Made by a program: the position numbers and the translations under genes. Positions 13,692 through 30,451 of a stretch of 64,000 bases of DNA are shown here, in pieces. The stretch spans positions 35,234 to 99,233 of the forward strand of contig CACYQB010000005.1 in assembly GCA_902776435.1 (NCBI GenBank). Reading direction: 5' to 3'. How positions within the stretch are numbered: position 1 is the stretch's first letter; every line of letters begins with the position of its first letter. The notes beneath the pieces are model-generated. The model ran no database searches, was not told the DNA's origin, and worked only from the letters and a program-made list of their open reading frames with translations. Origin of the DNA: an uncultured Bacteroidales bacterium (GTDB taxonomy: Bacteria > Bacteroidota > Bacteroidia > Bacteroidales > Muribaculaceae).

Positions 13692-15509
13692 ATGAAAAAG
13701 ATGATCCGATTCTCCACGATGCTGGCAGTGGCAATTATTGCCGTGCAGTCCGCGCTTGCAGCAGAGCCAGTCAATTACTATAACAATGCCTTGGGCAAGA
13801 GTGACGAGGCCCTGATGTCCGCATTGAGGAGCATCATTCGCTCACACAAGGAGGTATCTTACAGCAGTGGCCTGCTTAATGCATTTGCCATTGCCGATGT
13901 TGACAATCAAGGCTATATCATCGACATCTATAGCAACTGCCGCTATAGGCCGAGCGACAACGGTTCGTCGGCCTCCCACGTGGGCGAGGGCTATAACCGT
14001 GAGCACAGTTTTCCCCGCAGTTGGTTCGGCGGAGAGGTGTCTCCGATGAACACCGACGTGTTCCACATCTACCCCACCGACATCCGCGTGAACAGTCAAC
14101 GAGGTAACAACCCCTACGGCGTGTGCGCTAACGGCACGCGCTTGTCCTATGGCAGCTATGTCGCCAAGGGCAAATTGGGCAACAGCACCTATCCTGGCTA
14201 CTCAGGTGTTGTGTTTGAGCCCGACGACGAGTATAAGGGAGACCTTGCACGCACCTATTTCTACATGGCGACCTGCTACAAGAACGAACTTCCCTCATGG
14301 CCCGGCAGTGCTCAACTCGACTATGCCAGGAACAAGTATAAAGCCTTCTCGACCTGGACCATCAACATGCTGATGGAATGGACCCGCCTGGATCCCGTCA
14401 GCGAGAAGGAAATCAAGCGCAACGAGGCCGTCTATGGCATTCAGGGCAACCGCAACCCCTTTATCGACCATCCCGAGTTGGCCGAATTCATCTGGGGCAA
14501 CATGCAGGGCAAGCCCTGGAATGGCAGTGGAGAAGTGATTCCCGCATCCATTACCTCTCCCGCCAACGGTTCCGTCTTTGACATGGGCGTGACCGTTGAG
14601 GGCACTGAAATGCATCAGACCATTATCGTCAAGGGCGAAGGCCTGAGCAGAGGCCTGACGCTGTCGATGAGCGATAACGAAAACTTCTACGTGAGCGCCA
14701 ACACCTTCAGCGCTATGGAAGTCAATACAGGCACCAGTTTCGACATCAGCTTTACCGCCGACAACGAGGGCACCTATGAGAACACAGTGACCTTGAGCAG
14801 CAGCGAGGTGACCACCACATTCACCGTCATCGCCACCGCTCAACAGGGCGGTACGCCGCCACCTCCTGTCGTGCTGGGCGACAGCATCGTGGAGGATTGG
14901 GAAGGCTGCACGACCGGCGGTTACTGGACTGACGTCATCGAGGGTAACGCTTGGCTGTGGGAATTTGAAAATGCCGGCATCTGGAATGACAACATGAGTC
15001 ATGGAGAACTGTCTTGCCGCTTGGGTAAGAGCAATAACAGCGCCATTACCATGGCCGAGGATGTGCACGGCGGCACAAGTGCCATTGCCTTCTGGGCTGC
15101 CAGCTTCGGCAACGACAGTGACGCCACATTGCGCGTAGACTTCAGCATCGACAAGGGTTCAACGTGGTTCGAATTGGGCAGTTTCACTGTCACCAGAGGC
15201 ATCTTGCAACAGATCATCATGGATGTACCCCTGAAGGATACTGCCCGTTTCCGCATCGTGCAGACATCTGGTTCACGTGTCAATATCGATGACATCACTA
15301 TCTATGGCCCCACTGATCCGTCACCCATTCTGCCTGGTGATGTAAATGGTGATGGCGAGGTGAATATCGCCGATGTCAATATCGTCATCGACCTGATTCT
15401 GGGCGGCACAGCCGATGAGGGTATCCTCAAGCGAGCAGACGTAAACGGTGATGGAGAAATCGGCATTGCCGACTCCAATTTCATCATCGACATCATCCTC
15501 GGATTATAA
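13692..15509 (+). CDS. Secreted endonuclease I family nuclease with Ig-like and jelly-roll-like domains and a C-terminal dockerin
   Basis: Signal peptide; YNREHSFPRSWFGG, DVFHIYPTD, KGDLARTYFYM, GNRNPFIDHPE; ends GDVNGDGEVNIAD...ADVNGDGEIGIAD. Confidence 0.88.
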   Translation: MKKMIRFSTMLAVAIIAVQSALAAEPVNYYNNALGKSDEALMSALRSIIRSHKEVSYSSGLLNAFAIADVDNQGYIIDIYSNCRYRPSDNGSSASHVGEGYNREHSFPRSWFGGEVSPMNTDVFHIYPTDIRVNSQRGNNPYGVCANGTRLSYGSYVAKGKLGNSTYPGYSGVVFEPDDEYKGDLARTYFYMATCYKNELPSWPGSAQLDYARNKYKAFSTWTINMLMEWTRLDPVSEKEIKRNEAVYGIQGNRNPFIDHPELAEFIWGNMQGKPWNGSGEVIPASITSPANGSVFDMGVTVEGTEMHQTIIVKGEGLSRGLTLSMSDNENFYVSANTFSAMEVNTGTSFDISFTADNEGTYENTVTLSSSEVTTTFTVIATAQQGGTPPPPVVLGDSIVEDWEGCTTGGYWTDVIEGNAWLWEFENAGIWNDNMSHGELSCRLGKSNNSAITMAEDVHGGTSAIAFWAASFGNDSDATLRVDFSIDKGSTWFELGSFTVTRGILQQIIMDVPLKDTARFRIVQTSGSRVNIDDITIYGPTDPSPILPGDVNGDGEVNIADVNIVIDLILGGTADEGILKRADVNGDGEIGIADSNFIIDIILGL

Positions 15510-15553
15510 CAGATCATTTAATCTTTCATAACACATTAACACGACAACCATTC

Positions 15554-17884
15554 ATGAGAAGAATCGCATTAACCCTCGCCGTGACGGCGTTGGCGCTGGC
15601 TGTGTATGCCAAAGACCCAAAGCCGTGTCCCAGCGACTACTATTCTAACGCGCTGAACCTGAGCGGAGAATCCCTGCTCACGGCATTGCACAACATCATC
15701 ACGAGCCACACCAACATCGGCTATGACGGCCTGTGGGCCGCCTATGCCGACACTGACACCGATTCCCAGGGTTACTACATCGACATGTACAGCAACTACG
15801 ACAAGTACACCTATAGTAACAAGTGTGGCAATTACAGTCAAATCGGTGACTGCATTAACCGCGAACACAGTGTACCCAAGAGTTGGTGGGGCGGAAGCCA
15901 GCAACCTCAATACAGCGACATTTTCAATATCGTACCCACCGACGGATACGTCAACAACCAGCGTTCCAACAACCCTTACGGTGTCTGTGAGGGAGGCGTT
16001 CGCCTGACTAACGGCCAGTATGTCGCCAAGGGGCGCAAGGGAGCCAGTACTCATGCTGGATATTCAGGCACCGTGTTTGAGCCTGACGACGAGTACAAAG
16101 GCGATTTCGCCCGTGCCTATTTCTACATGGCAACCTGCTACAACAACGTCATCAGCAACTGGACGCAGTCGGGAGGCAATGTCTTCTTTGCGGGCAACAG
16201 CTATCCCGTATTCACGACCTATGCCATCAACTTGCTGCTGGAATGGCACCGTCTGGACCCGGTGAGTGAAAAAGAGACCACCCGCAACTGCTATGCCCAC
16301 GCTTGGCAAGGGAACCGTAACCCCTATATCGACCACCCCGAGCTGGCCGAGTACATCTGGGGAGATATGCAAGGACAGGTATGGACAGGAGACGGTTCCG
16401 TAGTCACTTGGCCCATGTTGACACAGCCTTCCGCTGGGACTACCATCAATGTGGGCACCATAGCTTTGGACGGCTCGAGCGCGAGCAGCCAAGTTAACGT
16501 CAAGGGTGTCAATCTGACGGAAGCACTCAGCCTCAGTGTGAGCGGAACAGGATTCAGCGTCTCACCCACTACCCTGACTGCCAGCGACGTCAATAGCGGC
16601 ACGACAGTGACCGTGACCTATAACGGTAGCGACCAGAGTGCTACAGGCACATTGACCTTGATGAGCAGCGAGGTGAACCGCACCGTATCCCTCACTGCCG
16701 GCAAGGAACAGCCGGGCGATGATCCCATCACACCCACGGGAGATTACAGCATTGAGACCTGGGAAGGTTGTGCCTCTGGCGGTTACTGGACCAGCGAGGT
16801 ACAAGGTGCCGCCTTCAAGTGGTATTTCACTGACGCAGGCCTCTGGGCACAGAACAATGACCACTGGAATGGCGATATCGGCTGCCGTTTCGGCAAGAAC
16901 AGCAATTCCTCGATTGCCATGCGACAGGATGTTGCAGGCACATCGGGCCTCTCGTTCTATGCCGCCACCTATGGCACCACCGATGCCGACGCTACCCTAC
17001 AGGTGCTCTATAGTACCGATGGCGGCAGCAACTGGACTATGTTTAAGGAGATTGCCCTCACCCGCGAGTTTGTTAAATACACCTATAGCCTGGATGTCAC
17101 CGACAACGTTCGCTTCAAGTTCCAACAGACTGCCGGCAAACGCCTCAATATCGACGATATCGCCATCTATGCCCCTGTGCAAGAGCAATCAGAGCCCAAG
17201 GTATACTTCGGGGAGACCATTGTGGCCATGCAGGCAGTTCAGGATGGTGAGTCCAGCATCAGCGAAGTTACTGTAATCACCGATGACAATGACGAACCCG
17301 TCATCGTGACTGTGGACGGCAACTTTGAGTTGAGCCTTGATCAGCAATCATGGGGAAACAGTCTGACACTGGATGCTAGCGGTGAGACATTCTACGTCCG
17401 CTTGGCCAGCACCGCAACCGCTGGGGAGTATGAGGGCGTGATCACGGCCACCGCCAGTGAAGTAACAGCTTATGCCGAAATTGAGGGCACTGTCTCCCTT
17501 CCCGAGGTTCGCATCGGCGATGTAAACAGGGACGGCTTCGTTACCATCTCAGACGTGACAACGCTCATCGACTACCTGCTGGGCGGTGATGAGTCCATGA
17601 TTGACCTTCTGGCTGCCGATGTGAATCAAAACGAGAGTGTTACCATCGCCGATGTGACAGCACTCATCGACCTGTTGTTAAGCGGCAATAGCGCTGCCAT
17701 GTGGAATGCATTGCCCACCCAGGGCGGCATCCGCATCAACAACCCCATAGGCGAGACGCTTGAAGTCTATAACCTCGATGCCGATGTAGTGGCAAGGGTA
17801 CAAACCTCAGCCTCACTTTCGCTGCCTGCGGGCATCTACATGGTCACCAGCGACACCCGCTCCCGCAAAGTCATCGTCAGATAA
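15554..17884 (+). CDS. Paralogous secreted endonuclease I nuclease with Ig-like domains, dockerin and T9SS-type C-terminal domain
   Basis: INREHSVPKSWWGG, DIFNIVPTD, KGDFARAYFYM, GNRNPYIDHPE; dockerin 17516-17690; tail LEVYNLDA...LPAGIYMV...RKVIVR. Confidence 0.88.
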   Translation: MRRIALTLAVTALALAVYAKDPKPCPSDYYSNALNLSGESLLTALHNIITSHTNIGYDGLWAAYADTDTDSQGYYIDMYSNYDKYTYSNKCGNYSQIGDCINREHSVPKSWWGGSQQPQYSDIFNIVPTDGYVNNQRSNNPYGVCEGGVRLTNGQYVAKGRKGASTHAGYSGTVFEPDDEYKGDFARAYFYMATCYNNVISNWTQSGGNVFFAGNSYPVFTTYAINLLLEWHRLDPVSEKETTRNCYAHAWQGNRNPYIDHPELAEYIWGDMQGQVWTGDGSVVTWPMLTQPSAGTTINVGTIALDGSSASSQVNVKGVNLTEALSLSVSGTGFSVSPTTLTASDVNSGTTVTVTYNGSDQSATGTLTLMSSEVNRTVSLTAGKEQPGDDPITPTGDYSIETWEGCASGGYWTSEVQGAAFKWYFTDAGLWAQNNDHWNGDIGCRFGKNSNSSIAMRQDVAGTSGLSFYAATYGTTDADATLQVLYSTDGGSNWTMFKEIALTREFVKYTYSLDVTDNVRFKFQQTAGKRLNIDDIAIYAPVQEQSEPKVYFGETIVAMQAVQDGESSISEVTVITDDNDEPVIVTVDGNFELSLDQQSWGNSLTLDASGETFYVRLASTATAGEYEGVITATASEVTAYAEIEGTVSLPEVRIGDVNRDGFVTISDVTTLIDYLLGGDESMIDLLAADVNQNESVTIADVTALIDLLLSGNSAAMWNALPTQGGIRINNPIGETLEVYNLDADVVARVQTSASLSLPAGIYMVTSDTRSRKVIVR

Positions 17885-17906: not shown

Positions 17907-17944
17907 CAAGCAGGACTGATGCCATGTCGCATCAGTCCTGCTTG
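17907..17944. terminator. Bidirectional terminator-like hairpin between convergent genes
   Basis: caagcaggactgatgc / gcatcagtcctgcttg perfect 16-bp stem. Confidence 0.75.
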
Positions 17945-17981: not shown

Positions 17982-20936
17982 TCACCAATTACCACTCAGC
18001 AAGAAGTCAATCAGTGCGGTCACGTCGTTAATCCTCACCTGATTGTCTTCGTTGCAGTCGGCTGCACCAACAATGATGTTTGAGTCGTCCCCACTCAACA
18101 GGTAGTCAATGAGCGCCGTTACGTCATTGATTCTCACTTGACCGTCGCCATTCACGTCACCACGAACGAATTGTGGCTTTTCACTGAAGTAACCTGGGTT
18201 ATCGGGGCCACCGTCAATATGGGCGTAGGTCGCGTCCATGTGGTAGGGATCATAGGTTGTTCCCATGCCGCCAACAAGACTCGCGCAACCGGCAAACATA
18301 GCGGGATGTGTTGTCACATTCGACATATCCCATCCTTCTCCAACATAGACAGTAACCAGCTTGGTACAGCCTTGGAACATAGTCGTTGTTCTCGTTACCT
18401 GATGAGTATCGAAGCTTGTCAAGTCCAGTTGAGTCAAGTTACCGCACTGAAAGAACATAGACCAAAGACTTGTCACACGCGACGTATTGAAATTGGACAC
18501 ATCAACACTTGACAGATTGGTGCATAAGGCAAAGAGCCATTCCATGTTTTCTCCAGTTACATTTGCGGTGTTGAAACTGCTTAGGTCAAGACTCTCCAGC
18601 ATAACGCATCCCTGGAACATACGGGTCATATTCTCCAGATTGTCAGTATTGAAATGGCTCAGGTCTAAATGCTGCAGTTTAAAACAGCTTTGGAACATAG
18701 CAGTCATATCGGTCACCTCACTCGTGTTCAAGTTTTCAATACCAACGACTGATTCTAAGTTCTCCATGCCGTAAAACCAGTAACGAGTGCTTGTGGGTCG
18801 CGCGTCAACAAACGACTCATCAATGTCAACCTTATCCACATAAGCATAGCTGTTGTCGGTGTACCATCCTGGATTGTTGTCACCCTCGTTCAAGTAGTAT
18901 GTTGTCTCAGTGTGCAATTCCTTAACGGCATCGTAATAGAACGTGAGCGTCTTACCATCATCAGAGAGGAGCGCATACGGCTCTTTACTGCTGGGGTCAT
19001 AAATAAACTTGAAGTCCTTCCACACCTCGGCTGCCCCATAAATGCCTTTAGTACCATCTGGAACACAAAGTACTTGATTAGCACGATTGGGGAATGCTTC
19101 GGCAGGAACAAAAATGGGAGTTGCCCAATTGACAGTCACCGTCGCCAGATTGTTACAATCAGCAAAGGCACGGCTCTGTATAGAAGTTACCGATGATGGG
19201 ATATTGATTGTTGTAAGCGCAGTGCCTTCAAAAGCGCTCTCTCCAATTAATAGCAAACCATTGGGAAGAGGAATATCGTTCAGTGCAGAGCAATTCTTAA
19301 ACGAGTTATTGATAATGTATTTGACACCAGCCCCTAACGTGACGGTGCTTAATGAAGTGCAACCCTCAAATCCACCAACCGATACCACACTACCAGGAAT
19401 CGAGATTGCAGCTAATGACATACAATCTTTAAAAGCGCCTTCTTGAATGCCAGACACCTTGTTTCCCAAAGTCACGGAGCTAAGGCTTGTGCAGCCCTCA
19501 AAAGTATTGTTCTTGATGGAGGCAGCATTGTAGTTGATTGAAGTCAGTCCCGTACAGCCCTTGAAAGCACTCTTCTCAACTGTTGTATTATTAGCTATCT
19601 CAATTGAAGGCAAACTCGTGCAGCCCTCAAAAGCACTTTCTCCAATTGATGTCAAATTAGAGAAACGATTGACGGAAGCCAAAGCTGAACATCCCTCAAA
19701 TGCACTATTGCCAATAGTTTTCACTGATGTCGGGAAAGCTATAGAAGAGAGGCTTGTACATCCCTGGAAAGCGTTGTTGCCGATGGCGGTAATCTGCTCA
19801 GGCAAGGTGATGGCCGACAGGCTACTGCAACCAGCAAAAGTATTGTCAGGAATCTCACGTAATCCTGTGAAATGTTGCAATTCATTAAAGGACGTGATCT
19901 GCAATCCTTGGAAACTCAGTCCTAGGTCATTGACCATATAAGCCTCCAGCTGGTCGAGATATCCATCTCCATCAGCATCCCAATTAGCTACACAGATAGC
20001 CTCTACTTGAGGGTCGGCAAATAATAATCTGTTCGGTTCCTTGATCTCCTTAAATTTATTCCACTCATCGGCTGATGCATAACTAGATAATGAGCCTGCA
20101 GGGACATAGAGAATCGCTTGACGACAGAATGGGAAAGTTCTGGAGTCAACTTCTGGAGGTGTCACCATTCCGGCAATAACCGTTGTAATATCCGTTATAC
20201 CTTCAAAAGCACCCGAGCCAATGCTGGAAATGCCGCTTGGAAGAGTAATAGATGTCAAATTAACACACTGCCTAAAAGCAAAGTCACCGATACTCGTGAC
20301 ACTTGATGGGATATGGATAGATGCTATCTTACTCGTACTGACAAAATGATTCGGTATATGCTCAACCTCATTACCAATAATCACCTCACAATCACTTGCA
20401 AGGATAAAAGAGCCACAGTATAAGAATGTGTTCTGAATCAAATATGCCTGCACATTGCCCTCGGCATGCCTTGCATTATAATAAAGAGTCTTAATATAAG
20501 AATTTGGTTGAGCGAAATGATCATCTGAGACAGCACTATTAGCGATGTATACCACACTTTCGGGTATAGTTAAAGTATGTATCGCACAATTACCAAAGGC
20601 TTGACTTCCAATGGATGTAATTGTATTGGGAAGTGTGACTGAAGTTACTTTAGTCCCGTTATAAAATGCCTTTTCGCCGATACCTGTTACAGTATAAGTG
20701 ACTCCATTGATGTCAACAGTGCTTGGGATTACATAGTCCCCAGAAAAATACATAGCATAAGAAATTGCTCCAGCATGTGTAACCTCCAAAGTATGAGCGT
20801 CAGAATTCTTAATGTTATAATAGATTCTTACACCATCATCATTCAAAGCAGATACATCATAAGCACAAGCAGCGATGCTTGATATTAGAGCTATCAGTAC
20901 CAGCAGAGCTTGTTTATAAAAATTTTTTGTTCTCAT
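17982..20936 (-). CDS. BspA-type leucine-rich-repeat surface protein with DUF285-like repeats and a C-terminal dockerin
   Basis: Signal peptide; many xTLPxxITxIGxxAFxGCTSL repeats; LDLSxFNTxNVTxMxxMFQxC repeats; ends GDVNGDGQVRINDVTALIDYLL...ADCNEDNQVRINDVTALIDFLLSGNW. Confidence 0.88.
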   Translation of the reverse strand: MRTKNFYKQALLVLIALISSIAACAYDVSALNDDGVRIYYNIKNSDAHTLEVTHAGAISYAMYFSGDYVIPSTVDINGVTYTVTGIGEKAFYNGTKVTSVTLPNTITSIGSQAFGNCAIHTLTIPESVVYIANSAVSDDHFAQPNSYIKTLYYNARHAEGNVQAYLIQNTFLYCGSFILASDCEVIIGNEVEHIPNHFVSTSKIASIHIPSSVTSIGDFAFRQCVNLTSITLPSGISSIGSGAFEGITDITTVIAGMVTPPEVDSRTFPFCRQAILYVPAGSLSSYASADEWNKFKEIKEPNRLLFADPQVEAICVANWDADGDGYLDQLEAYMVNDLGLSFQGLQITSFNELQHFTGLREIPDNTFAGCSSLSAITLPEQITAIGNNAFQGCTSLSSIAFPTSVKTIGNSAFEGCSALASVNRFSNLTSIGESAFEGCTSLPSIEIANNTTVEKSAFKGCTGLTSINYNAASIKNNTFEGCTSLSSVTLGNKVSGIQEGAFKDCMSLAAISIPGSVVSVGGFEGCTSLSTVTLGAGVKYIINNSFKNCSALNDIPLPNGLLLIGESAFEGTALTTINIPSSVTSIQSRAFADCNNLATVTVNWATPIFVPAEAFPNRANQVLCVPDGTKGIYGAAEVWKDFKFIYDPSSKEPYALLSDDGKTLTFYYDAVKELHTETTYYLNEGDNNPGWYTDNSYAYVDKVDIDESFVDARPTSTRYWFYGMENLESVVGIENLNTSEVTDMTAMFQSCFKLQHLDLSHFNTDNLENMTRMFQGCVMLESLDLSSFNTANVTGENMEWLFALCTNLSSVDVSNFNTSRVTSLWSMFFQCGNLTQLDLTSFDTHQVTRTTTMFQGCTKLVTVYVGEGWDMSNVTTHPAMFAGCASLVGGMGTTYDPYHMDATYAHIDGGPDNPGYFSEKPQFVRGDVNGDGQVRINDVTALIDYLLSGDDSNIIVGAADCNEDNQVRINDVTALIDFLLSGNW

Positions 20937-25301: not shown

Positions 25302-26813
25302 TTACTTCCAGGAGGGGTCGCTCTCGTTCCAGCAGCGGTCGAGTGCGGTGACGGCATATTGCCACTTGCCCTTGCCTTCATCGGGCAGAGCGTAGGTAGT
25401 CTCTCCCGTGATGGCAAGAATATTGTCGGGGTTGTCAAGGTGGCCTTTCTTGCCCTTGGGATAGCGGTAAATGACATAGCGGACAGCATGCTGCATCGGG
25501 TTATCGTCCTCGTGAGGACGCCAAACCAGACATTTTTTGCCGCCGACCTTCTTGATATTGAGGTCATGCACACGATGAGGCTTCTCGCTATCCAGCCAAG
25601 TGTAAGCAGGAATGAGTGCCGGATGGCTCATCTGATTGCTTGACAGCGAGTCGAGCACACCCTTGTAGTTGCTCGTGATGCTGTAAGCGGGCCACCAGGT
25701 GACACCGTGCACGTCATCCATTGCACGTTGCAGGCGCAACTTGTGGTCGAGCTGAGTGGGATTGGTGGGATCACCACCCTCGGCAGCGATATCCTGATGG
25801 GACATCACGTTGTTGACCGCCTGGCCATAGTACATATGACGGCCGTAGGCATGGTCGTTCCACCAGTGCATGAGTGTCAAGTCGCTGGCACGTTCATGCT
25901 CCAGTTCCCAATAGAGTTGAGGCACCATATAGTCCACCCAACCTTCGCCAGTCCACTTGATGCAGTCAGCAAACAAGGCGTCATAACATTGCAGGCCATT
26001 GGTCTCGCTTCCATCGGGGTCACTGGTACGGTTGCGCCAGATACCAAACGGGCTGATGCCAAAGCGCACCCAGGGCTTTACTTCCTGAATGGTATTGTGC
26101 AATTGTTCGATGAGCAAGTCCACGTTGTGGCGGCGCCAGTCATTCTTATCCCACCCGATGCCGTACTCGTTATAGGAAGTCGTGTCGGGGAACTCCACGC
26201 CCGTCACGGGATAGGGATAGAAATAGTCGTCCATGTGCAGGGCGTCGATATCATAGCGCGTGAGGATGTCCCTTACGACCGTGTCGATGAAGTCTCGGCT
26301 CTCGGGCAGGCCAGGATCAAAGTAGAGTTTGCCATCGGCATACTTGAGGAACCACTCGGGATGCTCATAGTAGATGTGGCCTGGCGCGGGCTTATCCTCC
26401 TCACTGCTGGTCACACGATAGGGATTGATCCAGGCATGAAGTTCCATGCCGCGCTTGTGGGTTTGGTCAATCATGAACTGCAGAGGGTCCCACACGGGAT
26501 TGGGGGCCTTGCCCGGTTCACCCGTTAGCCAGCGGGTCCAAGGCTCAAGATCGCTCAGATAGGCAGCATCAGCCTGCGGACGTATTTGCCAGATAACGGC
26601 ATTACAATTGGCACGCTGCAGCAAGTCCAGTTGCTCGATAAGATACTGCCGTGTCTGCTCGGGCGTCATCTGAGCATACTGTTTCTGCCCGATGATGTGC
26701 ATCCACGCGCCTCGAAACTCATATTTGGGCGCTCCTGACAGCAGTGGCTCTTGAGCAGTCAAGCAACTTGCCAATGAGCCAAGCAGCAGAACCATGAAAA
26801 AAATACGTTTCAT
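25302..26813 (-). CDS. Glycoside hydrolase family 10-like (GHL10/UPF0748, YngK/DigH-type) protein with FN3-like tail
   Basis: EFRGAWM, WQIRPQADA, ELHAWINPYR, LHMDDYFYPYP, FGISPFGIW, DYMVPQLYW. Confidence 0.88.
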   Translation of the reverse strand: MKRIFFMVLLLGSLASCLTAQEPLLSGAPKYEFRGAWMHIIGQKQYAQMTPEQTRQYLIEQLDLLQRANCNAVIWQIRPQADAAYLSDLEPWTRWLTGEPGKAPNPVWDPLQFMIDQTHKRGMELHAWINPYRVTSSEEDKPAPGHIYYEHPEWFLKYADGKLYFDPGLPESRDFIDTVVRDILTRYDIDALHMDDYFYPYPVTGVEFPDTTSYNEYGIGWDKNDWRRHNVDLLIEQLHNTIQEVKPWVRFGISPFGIWRNRTSDPDGSETNGLQCYDALFADCIKWTGEGWVDYMVPQLYWELEHERASDLTLMHWWNDHAYGRHMYYGQAVNNVMSHQDIAAEGGDPTNPTQLDHKLRLQRAMDDVHGVTWWPAYSITSNYKGVLDSLSSNQMSHPALIPAYTWLDSEKPHRVHDLNIKKVGGKKCLVWRPHEDDNPMQHAVRYVIYRYPKGKKGHLDNPDNILAITGETTYALPDEGKGKWQYAVTALDRCWNESDPSWK

Positions 26814-28353: not shown

Positions 28354-29409
28354 CTAACGCTCAAAAACGGCGACCAGCGGGTAATGGTCGCTCTCACCCT
28401 CCTTGTCACGACGGCACGACAGCACACGCAGGTTGCCGCGATAGAAAATGTGGTCAATCTTGACATAGAGGTGATGGGCATGGAAGGTATAAGTGGGGCC
28501 GAATCCAGCCTCGACCCACGCATCCAACAAGTCGTCACCACACAGGGTGCGGTAAGCATAAGAACCAGGCGTGTCGTTCATGTCGCCCATGACCACGACA
28601 TCACCCACGGTTTCATCAAGAAGGTCGCGCATGGCCTGTACTTGACGTACATGGGTGCGGAAACCGTAATCCAACTTGTTGACAACCGACTTGACGCGCC
28701 TCTTGCGGTCAGAGGGTTTGTTCATCTTCTCAATGATGCGCGCGTCGTTGGCCGTGAAACGCAACGAACTCAAGTGCATGCTGACCACCCGGATATCGCC
28801 ACCAGGAGCCTCTACGTCCCAAGCCTTGATAAAATAACTGATTGAATCAGAGGCAAGCGCCGGGGATTTCACATCAGTGTAAGGGTACTTGGAGAGAATA
28901 CCCACATCAAAAAAGGCCTTCTTGCGATAGGGATATTTTTTATACAATTCCTGCAGCATGGGCTGCACAGTCTTGAGCTGCTCATAAGAGAAATCGACCA
29001 GACCCTCCTGGATGACCACGACATCGGCATCCTGGTCAAGGATGTAGCGCATGGACTTGTTGGGCTTATCGCCCTCGGTCCAGTTAAACTGTGTAACGTT
29101 CATCGTCAAGACCTTGAGTTGGGTTTTGGATGGGTCAGCATCGGAATTGTGGAACAGGTTGAACGGTGATATCAAGCGCAGTGTTGGCCACGAGAGAAAT
29201 AATGCCCCCACCAGGACAACCGCTGCGCGCCACTGCCTGAAAATGGCCAACACTACCAACAAAGCCAGTACGCTAATGGCTATGACGGGCAGCGCCAAAG
29301 TCGCCATTGACGGCAGGGTCCAGATATTGGGATCTACACGTCCGCCATAGGCCGCAAAGAGCAATACAAAGGCTGCGACTATCGATATGAGACGAAAGAT
29401 ATATTTCAT
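28354..29409 (-). CDS. Endonuclease/exonuclease/phosphatase family protein with N-terminal membrane segments
   Basis: VLTMNV, VVVIQE, VMGDMND, KIDHIFY, SDHYPL; start moved to MKYIF. Confidence 0.88.
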   Translation of the reverse strand: MKYIFRLISIVAAFVLLFAAYGGRVDPNIWTLPSMATLALPVIAISVLALLVVLAIFRQWRAAVVLVGALFLSWPTLRLISPFNLFHNSDADPSKTQLKVLTMNVTQFNWTEGDKPNKSMRYILDQDADVVVIQEGLVDFSYEQLKTVQPMLQELYKKYPYRKKAFFDVGILSKYPYTDVKSPALASDSISYFIKAWDVEAPGGDIRVVSMHLSSLRFTANDARIIEKMNKPSDRKRRVKSVVNKLDYGFRTHVRQVQAMRDLLDETVGDVVVMGDMNDTPGSYAYRTLCGDDLLDAWVEAGFGPTYTFHAHHLYVKIDHIFYRGNLRVLSCRRDKEGESDHYPLVAVFER

Positions 29410-29425
29410 GTAACGAAATTGGTGA

Positions 29426-30451
29426 TTAAATGAGTTTCCATCCCGGTTTAAAGAATGGTTCTTGGGCGGTGAAGCGCGGGGCATAGGTCTTGAGTAGCCA
29501 GATTACAGGCCACAAGACCAGCATGGTTAACGCGAAAACGATTAGAGTCAATCCGATGCCAGGCTCCATACCGCCGCGCAGGATGAACCATGAGCGGATG
29601 GGCAGGAAGAGCACCATGTGGGTGCCCAATATAATGAGTGAGTAGCGCCCGTAGTGACACAGGACCGGGATGCGGGGAAGTGGCTTGCAAGCCCAGAAGA
29701 GTGACAGGATGGCCACAAAGGGTAAGACGTAGAGTTTCCAGTAGGCCGGCAATACCTGGAGGTGGAGATTCATGTAATCGCTCAAGTAATAGATGGGCAA
29801 CGCCACCACAGCCAGAACAAGAACGCCCCACTTGTCATAACGGGAGGGCTCCAAAACACCCAGGCGCTTTATCCCCCACCCTAAAACAAAATAAGGCAAT
29901 GCCACCATCGACGTATCGAGCATGAGCGGCAACTCCACTTTATGGCTACCCAACCAATAGCCTACGGCAGAAATGGCTATGGTCGCCAAGAGCAGCCCCC
30001 ATAGCGGTTTAATCAGGCGTTGCAGAGCATAGAAGATAATGTTTACCCAGAACAGGCTCAACAGAAACCAGAGCGGCGAGGTCAACAGCCAGGAGCGCAT
30101 GTAGAATGGTTCAATGAGGATACTCGGGTTGATATCGATGGGCTGGGCACCGATGAGATAACGGGCGCCAAATTCCACCAACCTTAATCCATAGGCCAGC
30201 ACCACAAAAAAAACGAACGGCACAAGGATGTTATTGACCTTGCGCCGCGTGAAATCGGCAAAGCCGCCATATAGCTTAAAGAAAATACCTGATATGAAAT
30301 AATACATCGGCAAGCGGAAAGCCTGCAGGGCATTATTCAGATTGGGAGCAAGATAGTTGAAAAACTCATGATCGATATGGTACATCACGATGAGCATGAT
30401 GCACAGGCATTTCATGAAGTCGATGTAGGCAATGCGCTGTGGTTGTGCCAT
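29426..30451 (-). CDS. Acyltransferase family 3 (membrane O-acyltransferase)
   Basis: RIAYIDFMKCLCIMLIVMYH, FRLPMYYFISG, PLWFLLSLF; about 10 TM segments. Confidence 0.88.
   Translation of the reverse strand: MAQPQRIAYIDFMKCLCIMLIVMYHIDHEFFNYLAPNLNNALQAFRLPMYYFISGIFFKLYGGFADFTRRKVNNILVPFVFFVVLAYGLRLVEFGARYLIGAQPIDINPSILIEPFYMRSWLLTSPLWFLLSLFWVNIIFYALQRLIKPLWGLLLATIAISAVGYWLGSHKVELPLMLDTSMVALPYFVLGWGIKRLGVLEPSRYDKWGVLVLAVVALPIYYLSDYMNLHLQVLPAYWKLYVLPFVAILSLFWACKPLPRIPVLCHYGRYSLIILGTHMVLFLPIRSWFILRGGMEPGIGLTLIVFALTMLVLWPVIWLLKTYAPRFTAQEPFFKPGWKLI

Follow-up and report, generated by a model that had tools for sequence, protein, structure and literature searches.

Among described systems, those closest to the genes considered here are nucleases of Riemerella anatipestifer. 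The account given in PMC12398890 (citing Shen 2023 and Zhu 2022) has EndoI (AS87_RS02625) as an Endonuclease I with DNase and RNase activity that is secreted through a secretion system of type IX (T9SS), and AS87_RS02955 as a T9SS nuclease. The genes themselves, nuc1 and nuc2, are adjacent on the forward strand of a 64,000-nucleotide stretch of contig CACYQB010000005.1 in assembly GCA_902776435.1 (the whole stretch is hereafter the window). The 3.45 Mb genome is that of a rumen member of the Muribaculaceae related to Sodaliphilus, and the relatives of the two genes in public genomes are found in rumen metagenome-assembled genomes (MAGs) labelled Muribaculaceae or Sodaliphilus. Both genes encode a secreted Endonuclease I that carries a dockerin, and nuc2 continues into a tail with the predicted character of a T9SS C-terminal domain (CTD). 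Riemerella EndoI and nuc2 are alike in being Bacteroidota Endonuclease I enzymes with a C-terminal domain for the T9SS, and the family model of AS87_RS02955, NF052644 (T9SS_DNase_Rie), matches the middle beta domain of nuc2 over model positions 37-172 of 251. They differ in that the Riemerella nucleases, for which that account reports no dockerin, are studied as virulence factors of a bird pathogen, whereas nuc1 and nuc2 come from a commensal of the rumen and consist of several domains, and nuc1 has no CTD.

The Proteobacterial Endonuclease I enzymes (Escherichia coli EndA, Vibrio vulnificus Vvn and Aliivibrio salmonicida EndA; structures 1ouo, 1oup and 2pu3) share family PF04231 and a conserved His-Me finger motif with nuc1 and nuc2, but in sequence they are distant from the solved structures (E ~1e-3). 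The Proteobacterial enzymes are single-domain proteins of ~210-235 amino acids (aa), periplasmic or released, whereas nuc1 and nuc2 add 340-510 residues of surface-type modules and tags.

The cellulosomes and amylosomes of the Firmicutes (Clostridium thermocellum, Ruminococcus flavefaciens and R. bromii; 6kgf, 3ul4 and 5n5p) also have duplicated calcium-binding C-terminal dockerins, scaffoldin cohesins and adaptors combining a cohesin with a dockerin, and dockerins far outnumber cohesins in those systems and in the present genome alike. Firmicutes scaffoldins carry surface-layer homology (SLH) or sortase signals, whereas in this Gram-negative genome there is an outer membrane to cross, the tails are T9SS CTD-like and the pairing is predicted from sequence and fold. 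Cargo differs as well: where cellulosomes carry cellulases, the dockerin proteins here are mostly adhesin-like leucine-rich repeat (LRR) proteins, peptidases and nucleases. Dockerin proteins have been assigned to rumen Bacteroidetes (Bensoussan 2016, PMC6487960), and the rumen 'Muribaculaceae C941' is described as rich in dockerins and glycoside hydrolase family 13 (GH13) enzymes and reported 'without cohesin' (Lin 2023, PMC9863278). The available text of these two papers makes no link between dockerins and T9SS tails, nucleases or an architecture of dockerin followed by CTD. Literature searches on dockerins in combination with Muribaculaceae, type IX secretion and the outer membrane returned no T9SS-linked dockerin system, no dockerin nucleases and no CTD-tailed cohesin proteins; nor did they return a dockerin adjoining a T9SS CTD or a sister paralog having dropped its CTD. 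The components are known singly, as T9SS Endonuclease I and as rumen Bacteroidetes dockerins, and what is added here is a nuclease series with three tail states that includes a unique dockerin+CTD intermediate.

On balance nuc1 and nuc2 are probably two of ~190 clients of a T9SS-anchored cohesin-dockerin display system, both entering the periplasm by Sec and signal peptidase I (SPI), nuc2 continuing via the T9SS, and both docking on cohesins.

Domain architecture of nuc1 and nuc2

The first-pass annotation had proposed two neighbouring genes sharing a signal peptide, an endonuclease I, an immunoglobulin (Ig)-like module, a domain with the motif ExWEGCxxGGYW and a dockerin. Two open reading frames (ORFs) lie exactly where it had placed them, nuc1 (605 aa) at 13692..15509 and nuc2 (776 aa) at 15554..17884, both on the + strand, and Pfam searches, alignment and motif inspection recover each of the shared modules. 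Identity between the two proteins is 45% across residues 1-540, and between their dockerins 41%; judged by sequence comparison nuc1 and nuc2 form an old tandem pair of paralogs, each a secreted Endonuclease I of several domains. Conservation was assessed on 118 full-length ortholog clusters of the nuc1 type (66-99% identity; 119 clusters when dockerin ends were counted) and 120 of the nuc2 type, 41 of which were aligned.

Both leaders appear to be of SPI type, reading MKKMIRFSTMLAVAIIAVQSALA|AEP in nuc1 (13692..13760) and MRRIALTLAVTALALAVYA|KDP in nuc2 (15554..15610). Signal peptides were called heuristically throughout, by reading of the sequence and a crude hydrophobicity rule, and the cleavage sites are inferred. 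By the same means no lipobox cysteine was found in the leader of nuc1 and no lipobox in that of nuc2.

The Endonuclease_1 domain (PF04231, cutoff 25 bits) occupies residues 40-262 of nuc1 (13809..14477; 226.7 bits, E 4e-67) and residues 38-263 of nuc2 (15665..16342; 242.8 bits, E 5e-72). Residues N102-R103-E104-H105, N134, R137, E176-R187 and N253-P256 are invariant across the 118 nuc1-type orthologs, and N102-R103-E104-H105, D122, N134 and R137 across the 41 aligned orthologs of nuc2. In alignment with the solved EndA 2pu3, the stretch 'VNSQRGN' falls opposite 'VNGDRSN'. By analogy with Vvn we take the glutamate-histidine pair to be the general base and the asparagine to bind magnesium. Residues of the catalytic His-Me finger are conserved in both types, and non-specific DNase/RNase activity is predicted.

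An Ig-like module follows in nuc1 at residues ~279-385 (14526..14846), where there is a weak match to choice-of-anchor D (E 0.014), and the aligned module of nuc2 covers residues ~285-385 (16406..16708). Matches to choice_anch_D occur in 6/41 nuc2-type orthologs, the best at E 2.2e-10. The next module is a choice-of-anchor-J-like beta domain. That of nuc2 (residues 408-543; 16775..17182) scores 22.9 bits with NF038128 (cutoff 30) and 29.2 bits with NF052644; at E<0.01 NF038128 is matched by 27 of the 41 orthologs (best 9.8e-7) and NF052644 by 24. In nuc1 the domain was placed by alignment to that of nuc2 (residues ~398-540; 14883..15311). The ExWEGCxxGGYW motif is present in both proteins, as VEDWEGCTTGGYW and IETWEGCASGGYW respectively.

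A further ~100-aa module, at residues ~548-650 of nuc2 (17195..17503), is an insertion relative to nuc1 that is conserved in orthologs. The first-pass annotation had called it another Ig-like domain; the extra module is present and presumed Ig-like, but its likeness to the first Ig-like module reaches a probability of just 20% in hhalign, and the suggestion that it is a duplicate of that module was dropped. Among the precomputed Pfam accessions of longer relatives are PF22073 and PF15780, which we take to be Ig-like families of the ASH type.

Both proteins have a type I dockerin (PF00404, cutoff 22.9 bits) with two calcium-binding repeats, and the D/N residues at the loop positions are invariant in orthologs. 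The dockerin of nuc1 (residues 548-600; 15333..15503; 39.7 bits) is the last module and of the N/N subtype (ADVNIVIDLIL / ADSNFIIDIIL). As the earlier annotation had noticed, nuc1 stops there: its C-terminus is one residue past the dockerin, and 117/119 ortholog clusters end 0-2 residues past it. The N/N subtype is found in 117/119 clusters as well, with invariant calcium-ligand positions. The nuc2 dockerin (residues 655-709; 17516..17680; 42.4 bits) is of the T/T subtype (DVTTLIDYLL / DVTALIDLLL), which is shared by 97/120 clusters. In an AF2 model it consists of three helices at a predicted local distance difference test (pLDDT) score of ~90, and Foldseek aligns it to solved dockerins with template modelling (TM) scores of 0.82-0.84 and a root-mean-square deviation of 1.3 A. 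The subtype-defining residues are the helix positions after the calcium loop, and among the dockerins of the genome ~48 are N-type and ~116 T-type. The separation into N/N and T/T suggests different cohesin partners for nuc1-type and nuc2-type proteins. Taken across the orthologs, the invariance of NREH...N, of the DNA-binding stretch and of the dockerin calcium ligands indicates that both nuclease copies are under constraint.

The tail of nuc2

After the dockerin nuc2 has a tail of 66 residues, which all 120 nuc2-type clusters keep at a length of 65-76 residues (89 in one). Its ending, ...SRKVVVK, is near-invariant across the clusters. The NCBIfam model for the type A CTD, TIGR04183, matches 8/41 orthologs at E<0.01, and a profile built from nuc2-type tails and iterated on the genome retrieves, at E 1e-9 to 1e-20, those CTDs that are TIGR04183-positive. 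In an AF2 model covering residues 651-776 (pLDDT 88.5) the dockerin is followed by a beta sandwich of seven strands, which span residues 718-775 and end one residue short of the C-terminus. Apart from dockerins, the Foldseek matches of this model in the PDB are all T9SS CTDs or PorZ: the RgpB CTD 7pq4 (E 1.5e-3) and 5ag8, the generic cargo CTD 5hfs, the RemA CTD 8gl6_D, from a translocon complex that contains it, and PorZ 5m11. Because of the conservation in orthologs, the profile link to the CTDs of the genome, the modelled fold and the T9SS machinery described below, the tail (residues ~717-776; 17702..17881, +) is assigned as a divergent type A CTD. The CTD-like tail of the first-pass annotation is in this way borne out, though it lies under the TIGR04183 cutoff.

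Dockerins, cohesins and type IX secretion in the genome

The dockerin is a genome-wide tag rather than a feature of the nucleases. At least 150 Pfam dockerin matches are present, and a dockerin profile made for this work detects 189 dockerin ORFs, 150 of which end <=20 residues past the dockerin; by the crude rule 127 of these 150 have SPI-like leaders. The ORF sets are stop-to-stop frames rather than curated genes, and the iterated profiles, in which drift is possible, are supportive rather than decisive. Representatives of the dockerin-bearing proteins include a C10 peptidase with I69 propeptide and LRR_5, CotH, GHL10, DUF2436 with Cleaved_Adhesin, GH53 and BspA-type LRR proteins.

Cohesins are fewer. 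Pfam Cohesin finds three modules, two of them above cutoff (31.4 and 30.4 vs 24.1 bits), and an iterated cohesin profile finds 18 modules in 13 proteins. A joint profile of the 18 cohesin-like modules matches solved cohesins at E ~1e-3, and the 50 best PDB matches of one such module, modelled with AF2 (pLDDT 90.7), are cohesins without exception (TM 0.58-0.76). The architectures of these proteins are X-cohesin-dockerin-cohesin-tail, X-dockerin-cohesin-tail, adaptors made of signal peptide, cohesin and dockerin, and one protein with a cohesin and a tail. The very small secreted proteins of this adaptor-like kind, which contain nothing beyond signal peptide, cohesin and dockerin, lie for example at C17:45337-45997 (contig 17) and in frames on contigs 7 (214-aa), 17 (225-aa) and 8 (207-aa); one is anchor-like, with a cohesin and a CTD-like tail. 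Five tails, those of four cohesin proteins and of o3626, which has no cohesin, are homologous to the type A CTDs of the genome (hhalign 97%, E 4.6e-11). No scaffoldin tail is among the TIGR04183 matches of the genome, and a PDB sequence search with the scaffoldin-tail profile gave chance matches only, such as L,D-transpeptidases, because the CTDs are too divergent for the method. The CTD-tailed cohesin proteins are predicted from these comparisons to be displayed on the cell surface.

The T9SS itself is encoded, with SprA at 2662 bits, PorV at 464 bits and four PorU paralogs at 543-942 bits, all above their cutoffs (420 bits for PorU), and there are 7 TIGR04183 matches (cutoff 23 bits). A search of the genome for a secretin found none. 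The PorU paralogs lie at C8:4319-7624, C14:106180-109488, C14:102759-106028 and C8:82-2490; a single PorU sortase per genome is the expectation. Directly upstream of porV (C14:91928-93106, -), the position that porU usually holds, there is a dockerin gene (C14:93209-95338, -) with a T-type dockerin at its end. It was considered as a T9SS component and set aside, its sequence looking rather like that of a GH13-type alpha-amylase.

A survey of 41 Muribaculaceae genomes found cohesin-like modules together with dockerins in 7, dockerins only in 2, cohesin-like modules only in 3 and neither in 29 (Fisher p 1.6e-4).

Tail states and history of the nuclease family

Five Endonuclease_1 paralogs are encoded in the genome and fall into three tail states. 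The dockerin-only state is represented by nuc1 and a ~606-aa protein on contig 3, the dockerin+CTD state by nuc2 and nuc3 (C5:109283-111700, - strand, ~10 kb past the end of the window), and the CTD-only state by a 574-aa frame on contig 1. Genome-wide, a dockerin directly followed by a CTD is found only in nuc2 and nuc3.

In 80 related loci a nuc1-type gene was found immediately upstream at 17 of 18 nuc2-type loci; the remaining one is at the end of a contig, in a MAG that holds a nuc1-type gene on another contig. The nuc1-type gene also occurs alone, at >20 loci and in >20 species-level genomes. At 26/80 loci, including those of mouse and human gut Muribaculaceae (Paramuribaculum, Duncaniella and 'Bacteroides sp. 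CAG:927'), there is just one nuclease, of ~800 aa, which has a CTD but lacks a dockerin. The genome G016, of the same genus as the present one, has 0 dockerins, CTD-type nucleases only and 32 TIGR04183 matches against the 7 found here. Another member of the Muribaculaceae, G001, has at least 6 nuclease paralogs, and three of these stand in tandem on a single contig.

A maximum-likelihood tree built on the 520 residues common to the nucleases placed a dockerin+CTD clade (19 rows, support 99) as sister to a dockerin-only clade (40 rows, support 100), with the CTD-only clade, from Muribaculaceae that are free of or poor in dockerins, outside both. The simplest history, which this phylogeny supports, is that a dockerin was inserted before the CTD of a CTD-only ancestor and that a duplication followed, after which one copy, nuc1, would have lost the CTD.

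Export and surface display

The proposed display of the nucleases can be followed step by step. Both nuc1 and nuc2 would reach the periplasm via Sec/SPI. From there nuc2 would be an ordinary T9SS cargo, its type A CTD taking it through SprA/PorV, and if the CTD is removed as in the processing of T9SS cargo elsewhere the dockerin would be left as the last module, so that mature nuc2 would resemble nuc1. The latter would have lost its CTD, and the dockerin at its end is of another subtype, which is conserved separately. The dockerins of both would then plug into the cohesin modules carried by 13 proteins, several of which have a T9SS CTD of their own and would hence be surface-displayed. Docking of the nucleases at the surface is plausible, because the genome encodes both the T9SS machinery and receptors of cohesin fold, several on CTD-bearing proteins. 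Judging by what is established for the family, the job of the enzymes is likely to be the cutting of extracellular nucleic acids, both DNA and RNA, at the cell surface, with scavenging of nucleotides and phosphate in the rumen. Five Endonuclease I paralogs suggest a heavy investment by rumen Muribaculaceae in surface nucleases, which bear on nucleic-acid turnover in the rumen and on the recycling of nitrogen and phosphorus.

For the CTD-less enzyme the first-pass annotation had offered a periplasmic location, co-export with a partner, or a dockerin that acts as an export or anchoring tag. As to how nuc1 passes the outer membrane, the guess favoured here is periplasmic binding to a cohesin+CTD protein, with which nuc1 would travel through the T9SS. 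Such carrier-mediated export, by attachment to cohesin+CTD proteins, is put forward tentatively, and these are the proteins to which the evidence narrows the choice of likely carrier. A broader idea, which should be held just as loosely, is that in rumen Muribaculaceae a terminal dockerin may have come to do, for the majority of exported proteins, what the T9SS CTD did, by way of periplasmic cohesin+CTD carriers and co-export through the T9SS, and that the nucleases preserve all three steps of the change. If the latter is true, the nuclease family is a matched and easily assayed set of reporters. The pair is in any case a natural test of how ~150 soluble, CTD-less dockerin proteins cross a Gram-negative outer membrane to a cellulosome-style scaffold, and the family suits this question because it offers one enzyme body with three tail states and an easy DNase assay on fractions or intact cells.

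Several points weigh against the display system and the place of the nucleases in it. The case is built on sequence comparison and predicted structures. The profile searches suggested by the first-pass annotation gave Endonuclease_1 and Dockerin_1 above cutoff in both proteins, but TIGR04183 scored 15.6-19.3 bits on the nuc2 tail against its cutoff of 23, so that the curated test for the CTD failed. Pfam hmmscan of six scaffoldin C-terminal halves found no Cohesin at E<0.1; the cohesins are on this account very divergent, and the purpose-made profile and the modelled structure were therefore used. Genome G001 has 32 dockerins and no match to the cohesin profile in its 85%-complete assembly, its cohesins being either more divergent or missing from that assembly. 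To our knowledge, no CTD-less protein has ever been demonstrated to leave through the T9SS while bound to a carrier. The retention under strong constraint of their own CTD by nuc2 and nuc3 is puzzling if carriers suffice. Finally, E. coli EndA and Vibrio Vvn, which belong to the same family, are periplasmic, and this leaves room for a periplasmic nuc1.

The last point leads to the alternative that survives best, although it is unlikely: nuc1 may be a periplasmic nuclease like EndA/Vvn which degrades incoming or scavenged nucleic acid once it has been taken up across the outer membrane, its dockerin being a leftover or serving within the periplasm only. An SPI signal peptide without CTD or lipobox would suit such a role, as would the missing secretin and the periplasmic location of family members in Proteobacteria (PDB relatives 1ouo and 2pu3). 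However, the dockerin does not appear to be a relic, because its calcium ligands and N/N residues are kept in 117/119 clusters, and nuc1 retains the Ig-like and choice-of-anchor-J-like modules common to its surface-bound, CTD-bearing relatives. The same layout of SPI leader and terminal dockerin is moreover shared by ~150 proteins, among them BspA-type LRR proteins, C10 peptidases and proteins with gingipain-type adhesin domains, all of which are typically surface T9SS cargo in other Bacteroidota.

It is slightly less likely again that nuc1 leaves the cell in outer-membrane vesicles or by lysis and docks on the cohesins of kin cells as a shared good. This would deal with the fact that a soluble protein lacking a CTD has no known exit, and cohesin+CTD proteins are available to capture free dockerin proteins, but the route would be inefficient for ~150 proteins under selection. 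More doubtful still is a dockerin that is itself the export signal, a functional substitute for the CTD read by a specialised part of the T9SS, for instance one of the PorU paralogs. In the nucleases the dockerin does occupy the position of the CTD of relatives, TIGR04183 matches are far fewer than in the dockerin-free congener G016, and there are four PorU paralogs to choose from. The small helical, calcium-binding dockerin is, however, structurally unlike the beta-sandwich CTD, and because nuc2 and nuc3 retain a CTD beside the dockerin under strong constraint, the dockerin alone would not be equivalent to a CTD.

The surface DNA-degrading complex of the first-pass annotation, if taken as a dedicated one in which CTD-bearing nuc2 exports or anchors nuc1, is very improbable: the tandem order kept at 17/18 nuc2-type loci and probable co-transcription speak for it, but neither protein contains a cohesin, their dockerins are of different and separately conserved subtypes, the tag is borne by ~190 proteins, and nuc2 is an improbable export partner, since >20 species-level genomes have nuc1-type genes but no nuc2-type gene.

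The surrounding locus

The spacer between nuc1 and nuc2 is 44 nt long (15510..15553, +) and no terminator-like hairpin was found in it, from which it appears that the two genes are probably co-transcribed. A scan for sigma-70 consensus promoters is uninformative for Bacteroidota promoters, and the terminator result alone was used. The flanking genes are housekeeping in nature (RNase E/G, an aminotransferase, an aldehyde dehydrogenase, an esterase, RlmN and valyl-tRNA synthetase), and inspection of them revealed no locus resembling a polysaccharide utilization locus or an uptake locus around the nucleases. Two proteins encoded 10 kb downstream of the nucleases, a 376-aa member of the Exo_endo_phos family (28354-29484, -) and a GHL10 protein (25302-26813, -), have no dockerin by profile. 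Immediately after nuc2 there is a 16-bp G+C-rich hairpin (17907..17944), which is likely to be a bidirectional terminator between nuc2 and a convergent gene. The product of the latter (17982..20936, -) is a BspA-type LRR / DUF285 protein of 984 aa (LRR_5 316.8 bits) with a T/T dockerin at its end (Dockerin_1 39.1 bits), and is another client of the same dockerin system.

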